A stretch of 64,000 bases of DNA, taken from assembly GCA_965237465.1 (NCBI GenBank), contig OZ250138.1, positions 494,813-558,812 of the forward strand, read 5' to 3'. The translations under genes and the position numbers were made by a program. The notes below the pieces were generated by a model. That model made no database searches and was not told where the DNA came from. It saw only the letters and a program-made list of their open reading frames with translations. This stretch comes from Dehalococcoidia bacterium (GTDB taxonomy: Bacteria > Chloroflexota > Dehalococcoidia > UBA6926). Shown here piece by piece: positions 5,222 to 43,584 of this stretch (position 1 is its first letter; the number at the start of each line of letters is the position of its first letter).

Positions 5222-6007
5222 ATGCACGGCGTGAAGCCGCATGTTTTCCTTATAGGTGAGACACGGCTCGTGCCGGATGGGCTGCAGGCCTACCTTGAGC
5301 ACATCGGCGCAAAGGATTGGACCACCGACGCCGCAACGGATGTCGAGGGTCTCGCCGAGTTCATGGGACGTCTTTGTTACCGTAGTTTCGAGCCCGGCCT
5401 GAATCCCAACGTCACCCGCGTTCGCCCCAATAATCAGGCGCACCTCAGCAACATCATCGCCACCGGGCACGGCTCTGTCCTGGAGCACAGCGTGCTGAAC
5501 TTTGCCTTTAGCGACGTTAGTCGCGTGTTCACACATGAGCTTGTACGTCACCGCGCCGGCACCGCCGTCTCGCAGGAGAGCCTGCGATTCGTTCGGCTCG
5601 ATGATCTCGGCATGTGGGCGCCCACCGCCATCCGCGAAGACGACGAAATCATGGAAGTATTTGTGGATACGTTTCATCGACTGGAAGAGTTGCAGAAGAT
5701 GATGGCGGATCACTATGAGCTTGACGATGAGGGCGCAAAGTTCTCAAAGAAGAAGGAGATCACGTCCGCCATGCGCCGCATCGCCCCCATTGGCGTAGCG
5801 ACAAGCATTGGATGGAGCACCAACATTCGCGCTTTGAGACATATCCTCGAGGCCAGGACTGACCCCAGTTCTGAGGAGGAAATCCGTCTCGTTTTTGGGA
5901 AGGTCGGGGAGATCGTGCGTGAGCGCTATCCCGTCCTCTTTGGCGACTACGAGATCGAGATGGTCAACGACCTGCCCTGGTACAAGACAACACACGAAAA
6001 GGTCTGA
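5222..6007 (+). CDS. thyX: FAD-dependent thymidylate synthase ThyX
   Basis: ThyX signature RHRAGTAVSQESLRFV (RHR…S…S.R motif), 261 aa. SD aggaggtagagggtag sits before the ATG. Confidence 0.9.
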   Translation: MHGVKPHVFLIGETRLVPDGLQAYLEHIGAKDWTTDAATDVEGLAEFMGRLCYRSFEPGLNPNVTRVRPNNQAHLSNIIATGHGSVLEHSVLNFAFSDVSRVFTHELVRHRAGTAVSQESLRFVRLDDLGMWAPTAIREDDEIMEVFVDTFHRLEELQKMMADHYELDDEGAKFSKKKEITSAMRRIAPIGVATSIGWSTNIRALRHILEARTDPSSEEEIRLVFGKVGEIVRERYPVLFGDYEIEMVNDLPWYKTTHEKV

Positions 6008-6622: not shown

Positions 6623-7504
6623 TTGCCGAATATCATTAGCCACCAACAGTCCGAGGGACGAACCAGCCGCTTTGTCAGCGTCAACGGTGTGCAGTTCCAC
6701 GCCCTTGACTGGGGAGGCGACGGCCCTCCACTAGTACTCGTTCACGGCGGACGGCGAACCGGCCGCAGCTGGAACGCCGTTGCACGGCGGCTCCGCGACG
6801 ATTTCCGCGTCATTGCGCTGGACACCCGAGGCCACGGTGAAAGCGATGCGCCGATAACCGGATACACGGCCCATCAGGGCGCGCTGGACATGGCGGGCAT
6901 TCTGGAAGAAATGGATCTGCCGCCGCACTATATTGTCTCCCATTCATACGGCGGCGCCATAAGCGGCCTCTACGCCACCAACCATCCTGATCGTGTGCTC
7001 GCCATGGTCATGATTGAGCCGGTGCCGGAGGGCCCGGCCCATTGGGTTCGCGTCAACATCCTCAATGAAGATCTGACGGAGAAGCCTGGTCCTGGCCGAC
7101 GCAATACGTGGGTGTCTCTTGATGACCTCAAGCGGAGACTTGAGTCCAACAATATGACGAGCGTGTGGACTCCGGAAGCGCTGGAAGATGTCCTCAAGGA
7201 GGAAACAATCGTCCATCCGGATGGCCGCGCGGAAGCTATGTGGAACCTCAACGCCTATAACATGGATGAGCTTCCCCGGGATGAGTTCTTGCTTATCGAT
7301 GGCGCTGATCGTCTGACGATGCCAATCCTTGTTGTCGTGGCGGCGGAGAACAACCTGCTTGAGTCGCACCATAAGCCGCTGTCAGACGCCCTGCCGCGCG
7401 GCGAGATCAACGTCATGCCGGACGTGGGACACGCCATCTACATGCAAGTGCCGGAGGAAACGGCGCAGTTCACCAGAGATTTCCTGCTGGCAACCCGCGA
7501 CTAG
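6623..7504 (+). CDS. Alpha/beta-fold hydrolase
   Basis: HGG oxyanion motif, nucleophile elbow SHSYGG, and Asp/His later in the sequence. TTG start preceded by gggagg. Confidence 0.8.
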   Translation: MPNIISHQQSEGRTSRFVSVNGVQFHALDWGGDGPPLVLVHGGRRTGRSWNAVARRLRDDFRVIALDTRGHGESDAPITGYTAHQGALDMAGILEEMDLPPHYIVSHSYGGAISGLYATNHPDRVLAMVMIEPVPEGPAHWVRVNILNEDLTEKPGPGRRNTWVSLDDLKRRLESNNMTSVWTPEALEDVLKEETIVHPDGRAEAMWNLNAYNMDELPRDEFLLIDGADRLTMPILVVVAAENNLLESHHKPLSDALPRGEINVMPDVGHAIYMQVPEETAQFTRDFLLATRD

Positions 7505-7661
7505 TTCGCCCCCTAGACCGCCCGTGACCCACCGGGATGGTCATGGCCACCAGGACTCCCCCCGCTTACTCACCCGTCTCCCCCGTGCAGGCTGGGCATG
7601 CCGCTTTGTTCGACCTCTCCCTTGACGGGAGCTTGCGCCTCAGCGCGGGTGGGGTTGGATG

Positions 7662-8159
7662 CTACTCCTCCAGGACGAGATCGCCGCTGCGGCCACCCGA
7701 CTTTGCAACGAGCCTCACAGCCTCGATGCGCATCGTTCTGTCGATGGCCTTACACATGTCATAAACGGTGATGCCGGCGATGGTTGCGGCGGTTAGCGCC
7801 TCGATTTCGGCGCCCGTCTGCCCGGTCGTCCGGACTGTGGCCTCAATCTCCACACTTGACGCGTCTTGTCCCAGCGTGACGTCGACGCCGACGAATGACA
7901 GAGGGATGACGTGGCAGAGAGGAATTAATTCCGCCGCCCTTTTTGCCGCCATGACGCCTGCGAGTTGGGCGGTGGAGAGGACGTCACCCTTGGGTGTTGT
8001 GTGATCACGAATCGCCTGGAATGTGGCGGGCGACATCACGACGCGTCCTCGAGCCACGGCTTCGCGACGCGTCGTGTCCTTTTCGCCGACGTCCACCATG
8101 CGCGGCCCGGCAATGGGATCGATGTGAGTGAGTCGAGGCTCCTCGGCGGCGTCAGTCAT
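7662..8159 (-). CDS. moaC: Cyclic pyranopterin monophosphate synthase MoaC
   Basis: Typical MoaC sequence (MVDVGEKDTTRREA…, ATVRTTGQTGAEIEALTAATIAGITVYDMCKA). Confidence 0.9.
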   Translation of the reverse strand: MTDAAEEPRLTHIDPIAGPRMVDVGEKDTTRREAVARGRVVMSPATFQAIRDHTTPKGDVLSTAQLAGVMAAKRAAELIPLCHVIPLSFVGVDVTLGQDASSVEIEATVRTTGQTGAEIEALTAATIAGITVYDMCKAIDRTMRIEAVRLVAKSGGRSGDLVLEE

Positions 8160-9241: not shown

Positions 9242-9880
9242 TTACCCGGGGTTCACGCGCGCGTTTGGCGTTGGCACGTCCTGATTGGCCAGCATCTCGA
9301 TAATTCCTCGAGCTGCCTGGGCGGCTAGCCCCCTGTGACTGATTCTGTTCTTGATTGTTGACTCCAACTCCGCCATGGTCTTGCGACGGTCCGGCAGGAG
9401 GAACACCGGGTCATAACCGAAACCGTTTGTCCCCCTGGGCTGCTTTCCAATTATACCCCGCAGCTCGCCCCTAGCGATATGGACCTCGGATGAGTCCGGC
9501 TGCGCAATGGCTATGACGCATCGAAAGGCGGCAGTCCGTTCCGATTCCGGCACACCCGCAAGCGCATTCAGTAAGAGAGACACGCGATCCTCATCAGTCG
9601 TCGCCTGCGGCGCCCCGTAGCGAGCACTGCGAACGCCCGGCGCGGCATTGAGGGCATCCACAAACAGGCCTGAATCGTCCGCCAGGGCGACCATGCCGCC
9701 CGCATTCGCGTAGGCGCGCGCCTTGAGCCTTGCGTTCTCCTCAAGCGTCTCGCCGGTCTCGTCAACGTCCAGGTCAAGACCTAGCTGGACTGGCGTCGTC
9801 AATTCGACGTCCAACCCGCTCAGCAGGGTCTCAAGCTCGCGGATCTTGCCCGCGTTGCCCGTGCCGATGAGTAGTTTCAC
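9242..9880 (-). CDS. rdgB: Non-canonical purine NTP pyrophosphatase (RdgB/HAM1 family)
   Basis: MKLLIGTGNAGKIRE…, FGYDPVF and the SHRG motif. Confidence 0.85.
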   Translation of the reverse strand: MKLLIGTGNAGKIRELETLLSGLDVELTTPVQLGLDLDVDETGETLEENARLKARAYANAGGMVALADDSGLFVDALNAAPGVRSARYGAPQATTDEDRVSLLLNALAGVPESERTAAFRCVIAIAQPDSSEVHIARGELRGIIGKQPRGTNGFGYDPVFLLPDRRKTMAELESTIKNRISHRGLAAQAARGIIEMLANQDVPTPNARVNPG

Positions 9881-9935
9881 GCCGGCGTCGCGCGTGTGCC
9901 CGGACGACTTCGCCCTATGAGACCGTTCTTCGGCG

Positions 9936-40085: not shown

Positions 40086-41369
40086 ATGGGAGCCACCGCA
40101 GTCATTGGAGCACAATGGGGAGATGAGGGAAAAGGCAAGGTTATAGACCTTCTTGCCGAGCGGGCTGACTATGTCGTCCGGTTCTCCGGCGGCAACAACG
40201 CCGGCCACACGGTCATTAACCACCTAGGCGAATTTCGGCTGCATCTGGTCCCCGCCGGCATCTTCAATGCCCAGACGACTTGCGTGATCGGCAACGGCGT
40301 CGCGATTGACCCGGACGTGCTCATTGGCGAGCTGGATGAGCTAGATGAGGCAGGCATCGACACCAGCCGGCTTCTTATCAGCGACCGGGCGCACATCGTC
40401 TTCCCGCACCACAGACTGCTTGACGGACTTGAGGAGAATCGGCTGGATGCGCAAGCGATCGGCACGACGCGCCGCGGCATTGGGCCGGCCTTCACGGACA
40501 AGACGGCGCGGCGCGGCCTGCGCATGGGCGACCTCCTGGACTGGGAGGGCCTCCTCTCAAAGCTGGAGGGCGTGCTTGAGTACGTCAATCTGGTGTTGCA
40601 GGGCGTGTACAACCACGAGCCTATTGCCCTAAATGACGTCTATGAACAGTGTCAACGGTGGACTGACCGACTGGCGGGGGCAATCCACCAGACTGAACTG
40701 ATCATCAACAGAGCGCTCCAGGACCACAAGGAAGTGCTGCTGGAGGGGGCGCAAGGCACGCTTCTGGACCTCGACTTCGGCACGTATCCCTACGTGACGT
40801 CGTCCCACCCCGGCGCCAGCAGCGCCTACCAGGGCGCGGGCATTGGCCCTATCAGGATTGACCGCATCGTCGGGGTGTTCAAGGTGTACTGCACACGCGT
40901 GGGCGGCGGCCCATTGCCGACGGAGCTCAATGACGCGCAGGGCGAGCATATCCGCGAGGTTGCACACGAATACGGAGTCACAACCGGGCGCCCGCGCCGC
41001 ATCGGCTGGTTTGACGTACCCATGGCGCGGCTGTCAAACCTCGTGAACGGCTACACTTCGGTCATTCTCACGCGGCTGGATGTTCTGGACCAACTGCCAT
41101 CCATCAAGATCTGCACCGGCTACAAGTTGGGCAACTCGGTGATCGATTTCCCCCCCAGCGGCTCCGCGGACCTTGCGAATTGCGTCCCTATCTATGAGGA
41201 GCTGCCGGGCTGGCAGGAGCCGACAGGCCAATTCAGACACATTCAGGACTTGCCCGCCAACGCCCGCGCCTACATTGGCCGTCTTGAGGAGCTCATCGGC
41301 GCGCAGGTTAGCATGCTGTCCATCGGCCCGCGGCGCGACGAGAACATCATCGTCCGCGCCGCCCTCTAG
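40086..41369 (+). CDS. purA: Adenylosuccinate synthetase
   Basis: GAQWGDEGKGK P-loop and GNNAGHTV motifs. The ATG at 40086 has a GGAG SD. The track ORF has a spurious 70-aa N-terminal extension. Confidence 0.9.
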   Translation: MGATAVIGAQWGDEGKGKVIDLLAERADYVVRFSGGNNAGHTVINHLGEFRLHLVPAGIFNAQTTCVIGNGVAIDPDVLIGELDELDEAGIDTSRLLISDRAHIVFPHHRLLDGLEENRLDAQAIGTTRRGIGPAFTDKTARRGLRMGDLLDWEGLLSKLEGVLEYVNLVLQGVYNHEPIALNDVYEQCQRWTDRLAGAIHQTELIINRALQDHKEVLLEGAQGTLLDLDFGTYPYVTSSHPGASSAYQGAGIGPIRIDRIVGVFKVYCTRVGGGPLPTELNDAQGEHIREVAHEYGVTTGRPRRIGWFDVPMARLSNLVNGYTSVILTRLDVLDQLPSIKICTGYKLGNSVIDFPPSGSADLANCVPIYEELPGWQEPTGQFRHIQDLPANARAYIGRLEELIGAQVSMLSIGPRRDENIIVRAAL

Positions 41370-42154
41370 TCTCGCTAGATCGCCTCACTTCATAACGCCA
41401 CGACGACTAGCACCCTCATTCACCTCCCCTTCATAGGGGAGGGCCAGGTTGGGGGTCAGGGGCGGCACCTCCATTTCGGTTCGATTTTCCGTTTGATGGC
41501 CATTTCGTTTCGTTTGGTTTCCGTGGGGAACGCTTCGCTGCCTGTTCCGTTTGCGGCTGCTTGTCTGTTGGCGCGCTTTGGCCGGCCTTTTGGGGTGGCG
41601 TGTCAGGACGCGACACGCCGGGAGGTTCCGCTGCGCCCGCTCGACCTCTCCAGGGTTGACCTCCTCTTGTCCGGCACGGCTTGTGACACCGGACGGGTCG
41701 GCCGCTCCGCCTTTCGCCGCATGGCGTCGGGCAGAGCTCGTCCTTCACTCGGCGCGCCGATGGCGCGCCAAGCGGATCGGGACCTCACAAGACGGGTATG
41801 CCACGTCCTCGTCTTGCGGCAGCTCAACGTCGCCACCACTGTGGGTGGACGCCTGCGACGCAGCGATGGTTTTACGCTGTATGCCTCAAGCTGGTTGGCG
41901 CCGGATCGAGGTTTCGGAGCGCGTCCGGGCGTGTCAGATGGGGTCTACGGCCTTTTGCGACCGCATGACCATGGCATGCCAGGAGTGATTTCGGATACAG
42001 GCAGCGAAGCGTTCCTCTTGGGGGAGCGCCCTCCTGTGCACTCCCCGGGATGGTGGTTGGCGGCGGGGATATCGACGTTCCGGGCCGCCGGTGGGATGTC
42101 GATGAGGGGATAGTAGGACATGTGTTTTGTGCGGGTCAAATGGCCGTGGCACAG

Positions 42155-42554
42155 TTTTTCATGTTCGCGATCAAGGTTGTCTGATGGAAGGGAACGGTCC
42201 GCCGCGTTCCGGCGTCGGGGGTTGTTGTGGCATTTGTTGATTTGTGTTGGCGGTGGCACATGGCGGGGGGAATGGGTTCCGGCTTTCGCCGGAATGACGG
42301 AGGGGTGGGATGGCCCCCCGCTTTCACGGGGGAGACGGGTGAGGGCGTGGGGGATTTTCTCGGTTTGCGATCAGGGTTGGCTGATGGACGGGAACGGTTT
42401 GCCGCGTTCCGGCGTCGGCGCCCGCTGATGTGTTTGTGGATTCCTGTTGGCGGTGGCACATGGCGGAGGGAATGGGTTCCGGCTTTCGCCGGAATGACGG
42501 AGGGGACGGGGATGGGCCCCCGCTTTCGCGGGGGAGACGGGAAGGAGAGGCGGG
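42155..42554. repeat. Tandem direct repeat, 2 x about 200 bp (about 85% identity) with a degenerate partial third copy upstream (about 42050-42154), G-rich, non-coding
   Basis: ttggcggtggcacatggcgg starts at 42247 and 42447 (period exactly 200). Each copy contains the perfect hairpin ttccggc-tttc-gccggaa (42277-42294 and 42477-42494) and gaacggt…ccgcgttccggcgtcgg. Confidence 0.6.
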
Positions 42555-42675
42555 GTGACGGGTGAGGAGAGGCGGGGCAAGCCGCATTGGACGAACACGG
42601 TGAGAGCATGCATGCCCACCCGCGCGACCTCGCCCGTGAGGGGGAGGTCATACTAAGGGAAAGAGCGCCCTCGAC

Positions 42676-43584
42676 CTATACGGGCAGGTCAATCTCGTAC
42701 TGCGCGAGGGTTTTCTCTATCTGAGCGCGGGTCGCATCATCAGGCGGCGTCAGGGGCAGGCGCGTTTCGCCAACATCAAAGCCGACCACGTTCAGCATGT
42801 GCTTGACGGGGATAGGATTCGCCACCACAAACAGGGAGTCGATTAGCGGAAGGAGGCGTCGGTGGATTGCCGCAGCTTCCTCTTTGGCGCCATCCAAGTA
42901 GGAGTGGATCTTTCTCTGTATCTGCAGGCCAACGAGGTGCGCCGCGACGCTCACGACCCCATAGCCGCCGACGGCAAGAGTCGGAAGCGTGTCCGAATCA
43001 TTTCCCGACCAGACGTAGAACCCGTCGTTCGCGTTCTCAATGATGTTGGCGATCTGACCGAGGTCGGCGCTGGCCTCCTTGACGCCGACGATGTTGTCGA
43101 CGTGGCTAAGGCGCGTCGTTGTTGCGGCAGTCATATTTTGCGCAGTCCGACTCGGAACGTTGTAGAGGAGGCCGGGAATGCTGATGGCCTCCGCGATTGC
43201 GACAAAGTGGCGATAGAGGGATTCCTGCGGGGGTCTGTTGTAATAGGGGACAGTCATAAGGATGCCATGCGCGCCGAGGTTCTCCGCCTCACGCGATAGC
43301 TCAATGCTCTCCGCCGTGTTGTACGTGGTTGCGCCAGCTATGACCTGCGCCCCGTTGGCATTGGCAACCTCAAGCACGGCGGAATAGAGGCGCAGTTTCT
43401 CCTCATTCGAGAGAGTTGGTCCCTCGCCGGTTGTGCCCGTAACGACGACACCCTCGGTTCCGGAGTCAAAGAGGGCCTTGGCCAGTTTCCTGGCCTGTCC
43501 ATAGTCGACCGCGCCCTCGCTATCGAAGGGCGTGACCATTGCCGTGAGGAGGCGCCCAAAAGGCGCGCCGTCGCCGTCTCTCAT
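42676..43584 (-). CDS. dapA: 4-hydroxy-tetrahydrodipicolinate synthase
   Basis: LTAMVTPF…, GTTGEG, and the Schiff-base lysine region are typical of DapA. Confidence 0.9.
   Translation of the reverse strand: MRDGDGAPFGRLLTAMVTPFDSEGAVDYGQARKLAKALFDSGTEGVVVTGTTGEGPTLSNEEKLRLYSAVLEVANANGAQVIAGATTYNTAESIELSREAENLGAHGILMTVPYYNRPPQESLYRHFVAIAEAISIPGLLYNVPSRTAQNMTAATTTRLSHVDNIVGVKEASADLGQIANIIENANDGFYVWSGNDSDTLPTLAVGGYGVVSVAAHLVGLQIQRKIHSYLDGAKEEAAAIHRRLLPLIDSLFVVANPIPVKHMLNVVGFDVGETRLPLTPPDDATRAQIEKTLAQYEIDLPV

Follow-up and report, generated by a model that had tools for sequence, protein, structure and literature searches.

What occupies the 1306 bp between the convergent genes purA and dapA of a Dehalococcoidia bacterium (contig OZ250138.1) is the question that this locus raises. 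Positions are given in the 64,000-nucleotide stretch of DNA that was analysed (hereafter the window), in which purA, on the plus strand, ends at 41369, the stop codon of dapA, on the minus strand, lies at 42676, and the spacer extends from 41370 to 42675. We think it probable that the spacer is a lineage-specific non-coding intergenic mosaic, similar to the mosaic elements between the genes of Neisseria (NIMEs) or the bacterial interspersed mosaic elements (BIMEs), that was inserted into a hypervariable convergent spacer. In order, the mosaic comprises one copy of a long element, here called E (41513-42155), two copies of a unit called U, and G-rich 22-nt repeats. The observations that carry this reading are the modular anatomy of the spacer, the match of its hairpins to a class known as Ssn-related motifs (SRM), the dispersal of its modules in multiple copies, the lack of coding constraint, the absence of the content from orthologous spacers, the presence of an IS30 element beside a hairpin in relatives and the amplification of modules at particular loci. 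The same modules also mark other variable spots, at which the cargo differs between strains.

An earlier note, made from the letters of this DNA alone, had pointed to a perfect hairpin, TTCCGGC-TTTC-GCCGGAA, in each full copy of a 200-bp repeat, and this hairpin is indeed present at 42277-42294 and 42477-42494. The note had missed a second hairpin in each unit, CCCCCGC-TTTC-GCGGGGG. We refer to the first as hairpin B and to the second as hairpin A, and both match the SRM search motif HGTCWYN(0-2)YYVSBRHN(0-5)WNVSBRGN(0-2)RNCYNB (PMC11893778):

42272-42299, minus strand: SRM/NTS-type hairpin B, copy 1, CGTCATTCCGGCGAAAGCCGGAACCCAT; SRM motif match.
42310-42337, minus strand: SRM-type hairpin A, copy 1, CGTCTCCCCCGTGAAAGCGGGGGGCCAT; SRM motif match with one stem mismatch.
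42472-42499, minus strand: SRM/NTS-type hairpin B, copy 2, CGTCATTCCGGCGAAAGCCGGAACCCAT; SRM motif match.
42512-42539, minus strand: SRM-type hairpin A, copy 2, CGTCTCCCCCGCGAAAGCGGGGGCCCAT; SRM motif match with a perfect 7-bp stem.

The motif occurs at five sites in the 64-kb window compared with 0.45 ± 0.75 in 100 shuffles, and four of the five lie in this one spacer, all on the minus strand. Both hairpins have 7-bp stems and a 4-nt loop, and a constant CGTC 5' flank and CCCAT 3' flank give them an orientation. Across 79 sequences the stem covaries (CCGGC/GCCGG, CCCGC/GCGGG, CCAGC/GCTGG, CCGAC/GTCGG and CCGGT/ACCGG), and A and B share one design, of which they represent two variants of the stem. 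As an exact 22-mer, the core of hairpin B was found in 36 IMG/VR contigs.

The repeat dRS3 of Neisseria (ATTCCC-N8-GGGAAT) belongs to a longer sequence, the 28-nt NTS (CGTCATTCCCGCGMAVGCGGGAATCYRG); Ssn-related motifs that resemble the NTS occur across bacteria, flanking genes for a 94-aa GIY-YIG nuclease, and in Neisseria this small nuclease, SsnA, was shown to bind the hairpin and to cleave one of its strands, and that only when the DNA is single-stranded (PMC11893778). The window hairpins resemble these motifs in being 28 nt long, with CGTC, an ATTCC or TCCCC stem start, a GAAA-type loop, a complementary stem and a C-rich 3' flank, and in being clustered and directional; as for their number, the 64-kb window contains more of them than its shuffles do, with four of the five sites in the one spacer. 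Furthermore, the hairpin CGTCATTCCCGCGAAAGCGGGAATCTCG of one relative (L056; related loci and contigs are denoted by L numbers) is a single mismatch away from the Neisseria NTS consensus, and one contig with the same hairpin as the window (L016) has the order SRM, GIY-YIG gene, SRM. The differences concern the host (Chloroflexi as opposed to mostly Pseudomonadati), the stems (CCGGC or CCCCCGC in the window, CCCGCG in the NTS), the 3' flank (CCCAT) and the embedding of the window hairpins in larger conserved units (U and E); moreover, SsnA modulates natural transformation in Neisseria, whereas transformation is not known for this organism. At the level of sequence, the window hairpins are members of the SRM class.

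The GIY-YIG gene of L016, an IMG/VR contig, encodes a 91-aa single-domain protein (PF01541) and lies between SRM hairpins at 5250-5674, which is an Ssn-type arrangement; the contig holds further SRM variants, one of which combines the stem of window hairpin B with a GGAAC end. Another related locus, L083, contains at 678-2999 a DNA methylase gene, a weak 226-aa GIY-YIG gene and a Vsr gene, much like a restriction-modification module. The 226-aa protein was considered as an Ssn candidate and rejected, as it sits between the methylase and Vsr, resembles a restriction enzyme and has no NCBIfam match.

Two further hairpins of this kind lie elsewhere in the window. A solitary SRM-type hairpin, CGTCATTCCGGCAAAGGCCGGAATCCGT, is found at 16631-16658 on the plus strand, in the 285-bp spacer of the divergent open reading frames (ORFs) 15662-16561 (minus) and 16847-17347 (plus); the class is therefore not restricted to the 3' ends of genes. 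A degenerate A-type module, CCCCCGCTTACTCACCCGTCTCCCCCGTGCAGGCTGGG, lies at 7559-7596 in the convergent spacer of ORFs 6623-7504 (plus) and 7662-8159 (minus) and is 82% complementary to 42316-42353.

Having described the hairpins, we turn to the longer modules, the first of which is E. The loci with copies of E were obtained by a protein search with the 206-aa ORF 41493-42113, which yielded 14 hits, down to E=1e-63; ORF calls over E form 14 clusters among 1.84 billion representatives. Comparison of the nucleotide sequences then delimits the element as follows:

41513-42155, no strand assigned: E core, a discrete, conserved, non-coding multi-copy element of ~640 nt, defined by blastn copies at other loci.
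L079, 1128-1758: E copy, 93.5% identity, upstream of argG and followed by a hypothetical gene and a radical SAM gene.
L080, from 6045: E copy, 93% identity, at the same arg locus; the cargo is a hypothetical gene and a radical SAM gene.
L081, from 6045: E copy, 93% identity, at the same arg locus; the cargo is PhdYeFM and PIN genes.
L083, 6090-6728: E copy, 90% identity, between a xanthine-dehydrogenase-family gene and a RelA_SpoT gene.
L082, 6101-6747: E copy, 77.5% identity, beside a peptidase M50 gene.

Thus, copies with 77-93% identity span at least three gene contexts besides that of the window, and in all of them the matched part of E begins at 41513 or 41515 and ends at 42153 or 42155. 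Blocks of ~50 nt are near-invariant in E, even in the 77% copy of L082. Three E-derived ORF calls share a 1,987,973-bp contig with the window's own ORF (a match of 100% identity), and a 1,928,147-bp contig has four such calls, from which we infer that E is present in several copies per ~2-Mb genome. Neither E nor U matched anything in plasmids, phages or IMG/VR viral contigs, and a search of the GTDB species genomes with the U 19-mer TGGCGGTGGCACATGGCGG returned only 12 single matches attributable to chance, in unrelated taxa and none longer than 22 nt.

E is non-coding. The 'proteins' called on different copies read the same DNA in different frames, the alignment of six copies contains many indels of 1, 2 and 10 nt, which do not preserve a reading frame, and its variable columns show neither an excess of third positions nor any codon-phase bias; none of the nine ORFs of the spacer region carries a Pfam domain. 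In addition, the codon-position GC spread, which reaches 0.30-0.42 for the genes on either side, is only 0.03-0.20 across 41380-42640. Together with the positions of the two gene ends, these results bear out the description in the earlier note of a gene-free 1.3-kb spacer between convergent purA and dapA. At least 22 Arg/Gly/Pro-rich 'proteins' of 164-287 aa in public protein collections (P0121-P0142) are translations of E or U in various frames. Such database entries over E and U are likely to be spurious gene calls, and, as regards annotation, the mosaic accounts for a group of spurious 'hypothetical proteins', rich in Arg, Gly and Pro, that public databases contain. The idea of back-inferring the nucleotides of further E copies from these translations was dropped on reasoning, as the informative stem positions are wobble positions.

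The alleles of the arg-cluster locus differ in the cargo that follows directly after E and U: L079 and L080 (L080 7263-8844) have a hypothetical gene and a radical-SAM gene where L081 (7112-7803) has a PhdYeFM antitoxin gene and a PIN toxin gene, and synteny resumes at an aminotransferase gene. This looks like a cassette-like exchange at a repeat array.

To the right of E lie the two U units and a G-rich tail:

42155-42354, plus strand: U unit 1, consisting of hairpin C (GGAACG-GTCCGCCG-CGTTCC, 42191-42210), a spacer and then SRM hairpins B and A.
42355-42554, plus strand: U unit 2, with hairpin C at 42391-42410.
42531-42577, plus strand: G-rich 22-nt tandem repeat, GGGGAGACGGGTAAGGAGAGGC x2.2 (Tandem Repeats Finder), a tail module after A-type hairpins.

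The left parts of the units (U-left modules, ~170 nt) lie between the hairpin pairs. Tandem Repeats Finder reports a period of 200, 1.9 copies and 86% matches over 42163-42541. The 200-bp period and the two units given in the earlier note thus stand, and its count of about 2.5 copies does not: a degenerate partial copy had been proposed upstream, and when either unit was aligned with 41444-42162 on both strands the scores were 16-23, compared with 19-21 ± 2.5-3 for shuffles. Nor do the units bear the marks of a duplication unique to this site, as the note had implied. Units 1 and 2 are 90% identical to each other, unit 1 is 92% identical to the unit of L081, and unit 2 is 93% identical to its closest relative, a solo unit without E and without hairpin B in L083 (12430-12620); in other words, the two neighbours are no more alike than either is to units at other loci or in other genomes (88-93%), and the pair is therefore a juxtaposition or an old duplication of family members and not a fresh local duplication.

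The extent of homology past E varies at the arg locus, where it ends at window positions 42153 (L079), 42253 (L080) and 42337 (L081); in L081, E is contiguous with one full U unit, so that homology runs from 41515 to 42337. The tails GGGGGAGACGGGTG recur in L082 and L083, and tandem arrays with periods of 126, 56 and 59 bp lie beside E in L082. The arrays are different at each locus, and those that adjoin E readily undergo tandem amplification. In L083, a 48-bp unit is repeated 5.3 times with 98% identity just upstream of the E copy (5708-5961). Large arrays of A- and B-type hairpins flank the most divergent E copy on both sides in L082 (5440-6000 and 6750-7100), and a run of 30 G at 6993-7022 of the same locus could be an assembly artefact.

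We then considered the same spacer in relatives, whose dapA-purA regions were obtained through homologues of DapA. Its content differs from one relative to the next:

L001-L004 (DapA identity 97%): spacer of 1186 bp, occupied by an IS30-family insertion sequence (NF033563, 228 bits).
L005 (DapA identity 90%): spacer of 72 bp, without repeats.
L054 (DapA identity 82%): spacer of 2381 bp, with two genes without Pfam domains.
L055 (DapA identity 79%): spacer of 359 bp, with a 53-aa ORF call.
L056 (DapA identity 79%): spacer of 47 bp, little beyond the one hairpin.
L058 (DapA identity 78%): spacer of 201 bp, with several AGAATGAC-type motifs.

The spacer is therefore hypervariable among relatives and the locus is not conserved; depending on the strain, one and the same spacer contains just one hairpin, an element of the IS30 family, a pair of unknown genes or a 1.3-kb mosaic. 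Nucleotide homology between the window and L001-L004 extends past purA only as far as 41443 and past dapA only as far as 42673, which marks the 1.2-kb interior as a lineage-specific insertion in an insertion-prone spacer. That close relatives lack similar sequence at the orthologous site had been named in the earlier note among the results that would speak against its reading, and this is what was found as far as the locus is concerned: the content of the spacer is missing from the orthologous spacers, and the elements themselves are conserved elsewhere.

The IS30-family element of L001-L004 lies at about 10975-12010, directly after the hairpin CGTCATTCCGGCGAAAGCCGGAAT. L002 carries its transposase in intact form (336 aa), a frameshift splits the gene in L003 and L004, and decay has gone further in L001; these contigs all come from sample ERZ26694896 and hence represent coexisting strain variants. 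A relic of the transposase was sought in the window by tblastn with the relatives' protein, and nothing was found. In L083, an IS30-like gene lies between two Peptidase_M20 genes (9876-10922), with an A-type hairpin at its 3' end. The two spacer genes of L054 (6918-9103) encode 619 aa and 109 aa and have no Pfam domain. The spacer of L058 contains about five copies of a CTCAGAATGAC(A/C)GG-type motif (6910-7110) and also GTCATTCTGAGCACAGCGAAGAAT, an apparent GTCATTC...GAAT hairpin variant in the opposite orientation. The surroundings of the 53-aa ORF in L055 (7097-7258) read like a small membrane-anchored coiled-coil peptide.

Since mosaics of short hairpins and longer modules have been described in other bacteria, we compared the spacer with these. 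In NIMEs, dRS3 repeats flank repeat sequence (RS) elements of 19-214 bp, and NIMEs were reported as confined to Neisseria (PMC1797815). The spacer resembles them in that short inverted-repeat hairpins form arrays between longer repeat modules belonging to many families, in that syntenic intergenic sites differ between strains, with variable adjacent gene content, and in the insertion of mobile elements, here IS30 in L001-L004. It differs in the sequence of the hairpins, which in the window are ATTCCGGCGAAAGCCGGAAC and TCCCCCGCGAAAGCGGGGGC (only the relative L056 has ATTCCCGCGAAAGCGGGAAT) where dRS3 takes the strict form ATTCCC-N8-GGGAAT, and in that the window hairpins all share a direct orientation and have one G-rich strand. 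With the repetitive extragenic palindromes (REPs) and BIMEs of enterobacteria and Pseudomonas, which are associated with RAYT transposases, the spacer shares short extragenic palindromes clustered in mosaics, often at the 3' ends of genes and serving as targets of insertion sequences, and the spread of REPs is thought to be due to a domesticated hairpin-specific single-strand enzyme; the head of the window hairpins, however, is CGTC and not GTAG, their orientation is direct and not alternating, and the modules are of considerably greater length. Among the Pfam labels of the called genes in the related loci examined there was no Y1 (RAYT) transposase. Correia elements and elements of the enterobacterial repetitive intergenic consensus (ERIC) type are likewise non-coding and dispersed, are bounded by long inverted repeats, carry promoters and form long hairpins when transcribed; they measure 100-160 bp and have truly terminal repeats and a TA duplication. 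E is also non-coding and dispersed, with a long inverted repeat and a promoter-like site, but it is 640 nt long, its repeats are internal and no duplication was seen.

How might such a mosaic arise and persist? We propose that the hairpins act at the level of DNA, where a hairpin-specific single-strand enzyme, Ssn-like or of some other kind, would recognise them, and that they would also be substrates for illegitimate or homologous recombination. Arrays of them could then grow, shrink, swap neighbours and attract insertions, and would persist mainly where an insertion is harmless, for example between convergent gene ends. Any effects on purA and dapA, with hairpins at the 3' ends stabilising or terminating transcripts, would be secondary. 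A role as DNA-level enzyme sites or recombination substrates would account for the directionality of the hairpins, the strand asymmetry of the spacer (64% G+C, with 37% G against 26% C), the growth of the arrays, the ragged right ends of E and U at the arg locus and the adjacent IS30 insertions. Among the options given in the earlier note, that of a MITE-like insertion (a miniature inverted-repeat transposable element) or degenerated minisatellite comes closest: the part that holds is the insertion of dispersed repeat families, and the spacer is neither a simple local minisatellite nor junk unique to this site.

Several points weigh against the view of the spacer as a lineage-specific intergenic mosaic with Ssn-type hairpins. 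First, tblastn with the 91-aa L016 protein revealed no Ssn-like single-domain GIY-YIG gene (cd10448), that is, no ssnA homologue, at E<0.3 in the 282 kb formed by the window and related loci, which is less than 15% of each ~2-Mb genome. Second, hairpin B ends in GGAAC and not GGAAT, and its 3' flank is CCCAT compared with TCYRG in the NTS; recognition by an NTS-type enzyme can thus not be assumed. Third, the E and U families are confined to a narrow clade, and their copy numbers rest on few contigs. Fourth, E, at 640 nt, far exceeds in length the RS elements of 19-214 bp (PMC1797815), and it has a promoter-like site and a long stem of its own. Finally, an excess of double-sided pair changes in E and the promoter-like site fit a functional RNA better than inert filler.

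The alternative that survives best takes up this last point. It holds that E is the gene for a new structured non-coding RNA (ncRNA) of ~590 nt, with its own minus-strand promoter, a transcription start site near 42103 and a 24-bp stem, and that the hairpin arrays are merely its usual neighbours; we regard this as possible but doubtful. The features within E on which it draws are the following:

41526-41550, no strand assigned: left arm of the E inverted repeat, 24 nt, 96% complementary to the right arm, with 41527-41549 matching 41992-42015.
41992-42016, no strand assigned: right arm of the E inverted repeat, ~140 nt inside the right boundary of E.
41597-41619, no strand assigned: hairpin with an 8-bp stem, GGCGTGTC-AGGACGC-GACACGCC, retained in every copy, although a single pair is broken in that of L082.
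41751-41769, no strand assigned: palindrome with an 8-bp stem, GGCGCGCC-GAT-GGCGCGCC, not kept in L082.
42110-42139, minus strand: sigma-70-like promoter-like site, TTGACC-18 nt-TACTAT, which would drive leftward transcription through E.

The hairpin at 41597-41619 had been listed in the earlier note and was located again in our scan for perfect hairpins; the 24-nt inverted repeat, which closes a domain of ~440 nt, had escaped the note, as had E as a discrete multi-copy element. The promoter-like site at the right end of E is the sole one in 41000-43000, where 0.3 are expected, and a homologous site is present in all four regions scanned (expected sites per region, 0.2-0.3), being the sole one in the window, L083 and L082 (there as TTGACC-18-TATCGT) and one of two in L081. 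With this minus-strand site in every copy scanned and with its long stem, E is probably transcribed on the mosaic reading as well. The ~50-nt blocks that are near-invariant in the 77% copy would likewise suit an RNA, and in three of the four contexts the minus strand of E lies upstream of, and is aimed at, a minus-strand gene.

The predicted fold of E is unusually stable, more so for the minus strand (z = -6.8) than for the plus strand (z = -4.2). In the long stem (helix 2), 25 pairs are paired in 98% of cells across the copies and three pairs show double, compensatory changes in L082 that still pair; over the whole element, 13 plus-strand pairs and 10 minus-strand pairs are changed on both sides, compared with 4.1 ± 1.8 and 2.9 in shuffles and 0-3 in slid controls. 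However, the structure was derived from the same six sequences, of about three lineages, on which it was tested, and these counts are therefore biased upward. The covariation term of RNAalifold is ~0 on both strands, and in L082 roughly every second changed pair no longer forms (30 broken and 28 kept on the plus strand; 21 and 25 on the minus strand). In the palindrome at 41751-41769 (helix 13), six of 12 pairs depart, and only by unpaired cells. Moreover, the signal has no strand preference, arms of an inverted repeat may covary through a constraint at the level of DNA or through gene conversion, and several ~90% copies per genome with ragged right ends in variable regions are typical of mobile repeats.

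Known RNAs give no support to the ncRNA alternative. A permissive E-value scan of the spacer region with Rfam 15 returned a single row, BjrC68 (E=1.7), whose 14.8 bits fall short of the gathering score of 39, the same type of scan of L082 and L083 produced no family near its gathering score, and no tRNA or tmRNA was found within the window; the absence of known RNA motifs stated in the earlier note is thereby upheld. Of the note's suggestion of a novel structured ncRNA locus, what remains applies to the 640-nt core only, with the promoter-like site and the double-changed pairs in its favour and the broken pairs of L082 against it. A wider form of the idea, which we consider rather unlikely, is that E represents a hitherto undescribed multi-copy family of structured ncRNAs of a narrow clade of ~2-Mb Chloroflexi, with its own minus-strand promoter and 24-bp stem, that travels with Ssn-type hairpin arrays into variable spots rich in accessory genes, namely those with toxin-antitoxin, RelA_SpoT and radical-SAM neighbours. 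If true, E would be a new RNA component of a system for hairpin-repeat mobility or genome plasticity.

We judge it unlikely, and more clearly so, that the spacer is chiefly a shared 3' untranslated region, serving as a zone of bidirectional termination and mRNA stabilisation with the hairpins acting as RNA stem-loops like the REPs and BIMEs of E. coli. Its position between convergent genes is what one would expect of such a zone; the spacer is rich in G+C-rich hairpins (nine hits, representing six distinct hairpins, for perfect hairpins with a stem of at least 7 bp, compared with 0.75 ± 1.0 in shuffles), the whole 47-bp spacer of L056 amounts to approximately one such hairpin, and a related one lies in the other convergent spacer at 7559-7596. 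Yet no hairpin of the spacer is followed by a T-run, and terminator-like sites are at chance level (four against 2.9 ± 1.8 expected), with none at the SRM hairpins. Relatives manage with 47-72 bp, so that 1.3 kb is not needed for this purpose, the same hairpin occurs in the divergent spacer at 16631, and at other loci genes follow downstream of E and the arrays. Because 47-72 bp suffice in relatives, T-runs are lacking and the hairpin occurs in a divergent spacer, effects on the transcripts of purA and dapA cannot be the main role of the spacer, and the termination zone suggested in the earlier note is a side effect at most.

Still less credible to us is that E is a non-autonomous transposon of the MITE type, whose 24-nt repeats would be terminal repeats for a transposase encoded elsewhere and for which U and the hairpins would be target or flank. 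An inverted repeat of 96% brackets 489 bp, both of its arms change together in L082, the dispersed copies have sharp common boundaries, and IS30-family elements are active in the clade and adjoin the same hairpins. The right arm, however, ends at 42016 while conservation continues for another ~140 nt to 42155, which places the repeats inside the element and not at its ends; neither where the repeats end nor where the homology ends can a target-site duplication be seen. No parent insertion sequence was seen either; the termini of the IS30 element (TGGATTCACA...AAGTGCAACAC) bear no relation to the E repeat (GGAACGCTTCGCTGCCTGT ends), and a 19-mer of the arm revealed no further copies in the JGI metagenomes, its 20 single matches, mostly in human-gut assemblies and none longer than 23 nt, being attributable to chance. 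Lastly, a decayed protein-coding gene, or a small real gene hidden in the spacer, is highly improbable: the 206-aa ORF does have translated matches to E=1e-63, and a weak GC-phase signal exists at 41740-42039, but the matching 'proteins' switch frame, the alignment has frame-breaking indels and no third-position excess, and no ORF carries a Pfam domain or a trace of the IS30 transposase.

To return to the intergenic mosaic, its significance lies in several directions. It extends the NTS/SRM hairpin class, which was characterised in 2025, mainly in Proteobacteria, and has an enzyme partner shown in Neisseria, to mosaic arrays in Chloroflexi; what is new here is an intergenic mosaic of SRM hairpins, in Chloroflexi, whose core is unusually long and carries a promoter-like site. 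Hairpin arrays of this kind mark hot spots of insertion and exchange in small environmental genomes. The two stem types side by side constitute natural variants that could guide a search for the cognate single-strand nucleases, which are of biotechnological interest, and the conserved 640-nt non-coding element with its promoter-like site deserves a check in transcriptomes.

The remaining features of the locus are the two genes and the segments that join them to the mosaic:

40086-41369, plus strand: purA, adenylosuccinate synthetase; start inferred from 427-aa orthologues, PF00709 present in the orthologues.
41372-41462, plus strand: ancestral purA 3' flank, with an 8-bp hairpin, CCTCCCCT-TCAT-AGGGGAGG, at 41423-41442 and a G-rich tail.
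41463-41512, plus strand: GT-rich stretch before the E core, with (TTTCG)x3.8 at 41503-41521.
42626-42649, no strand assigned: imperfect hairpin beside the dapA stop, GACCTCGCCC-GTGA-GGGGGAGGTC, read from the sequence.
42676-43584, minus strand: dapA, 4-hydroxy-tetrahydrodipicolinate synthase; matches carry PF00701.

The purA gene of the window is 86-91% identical in nucleotides to those of L001-L005, and the best matches of the window's DapA come from metagenome-assembled genomes of Chloroflexi and are named in their sources as 4-hydroxy-tetrahydrodipicolinate synthase; an identical DapA entry was looked for and not found. The imperfect hairpin at 42626-42649 has no counterpart in L001-L004, where homology ends at 42673. 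Two of the four G-quadruplex motifs of the window fall within the spacer, too few for inference, and one motif of this type occupies 41436-41462 in the purA 3' flank. Other copies of E are preceded by a different GT-rich stretch. The purA 3' flank is kept at 88-89% in L001-L004 as far as 41443, and a hairpin module similar to that at 41423-41442 occurs in the opposite orientation upstream of the E core in L083.

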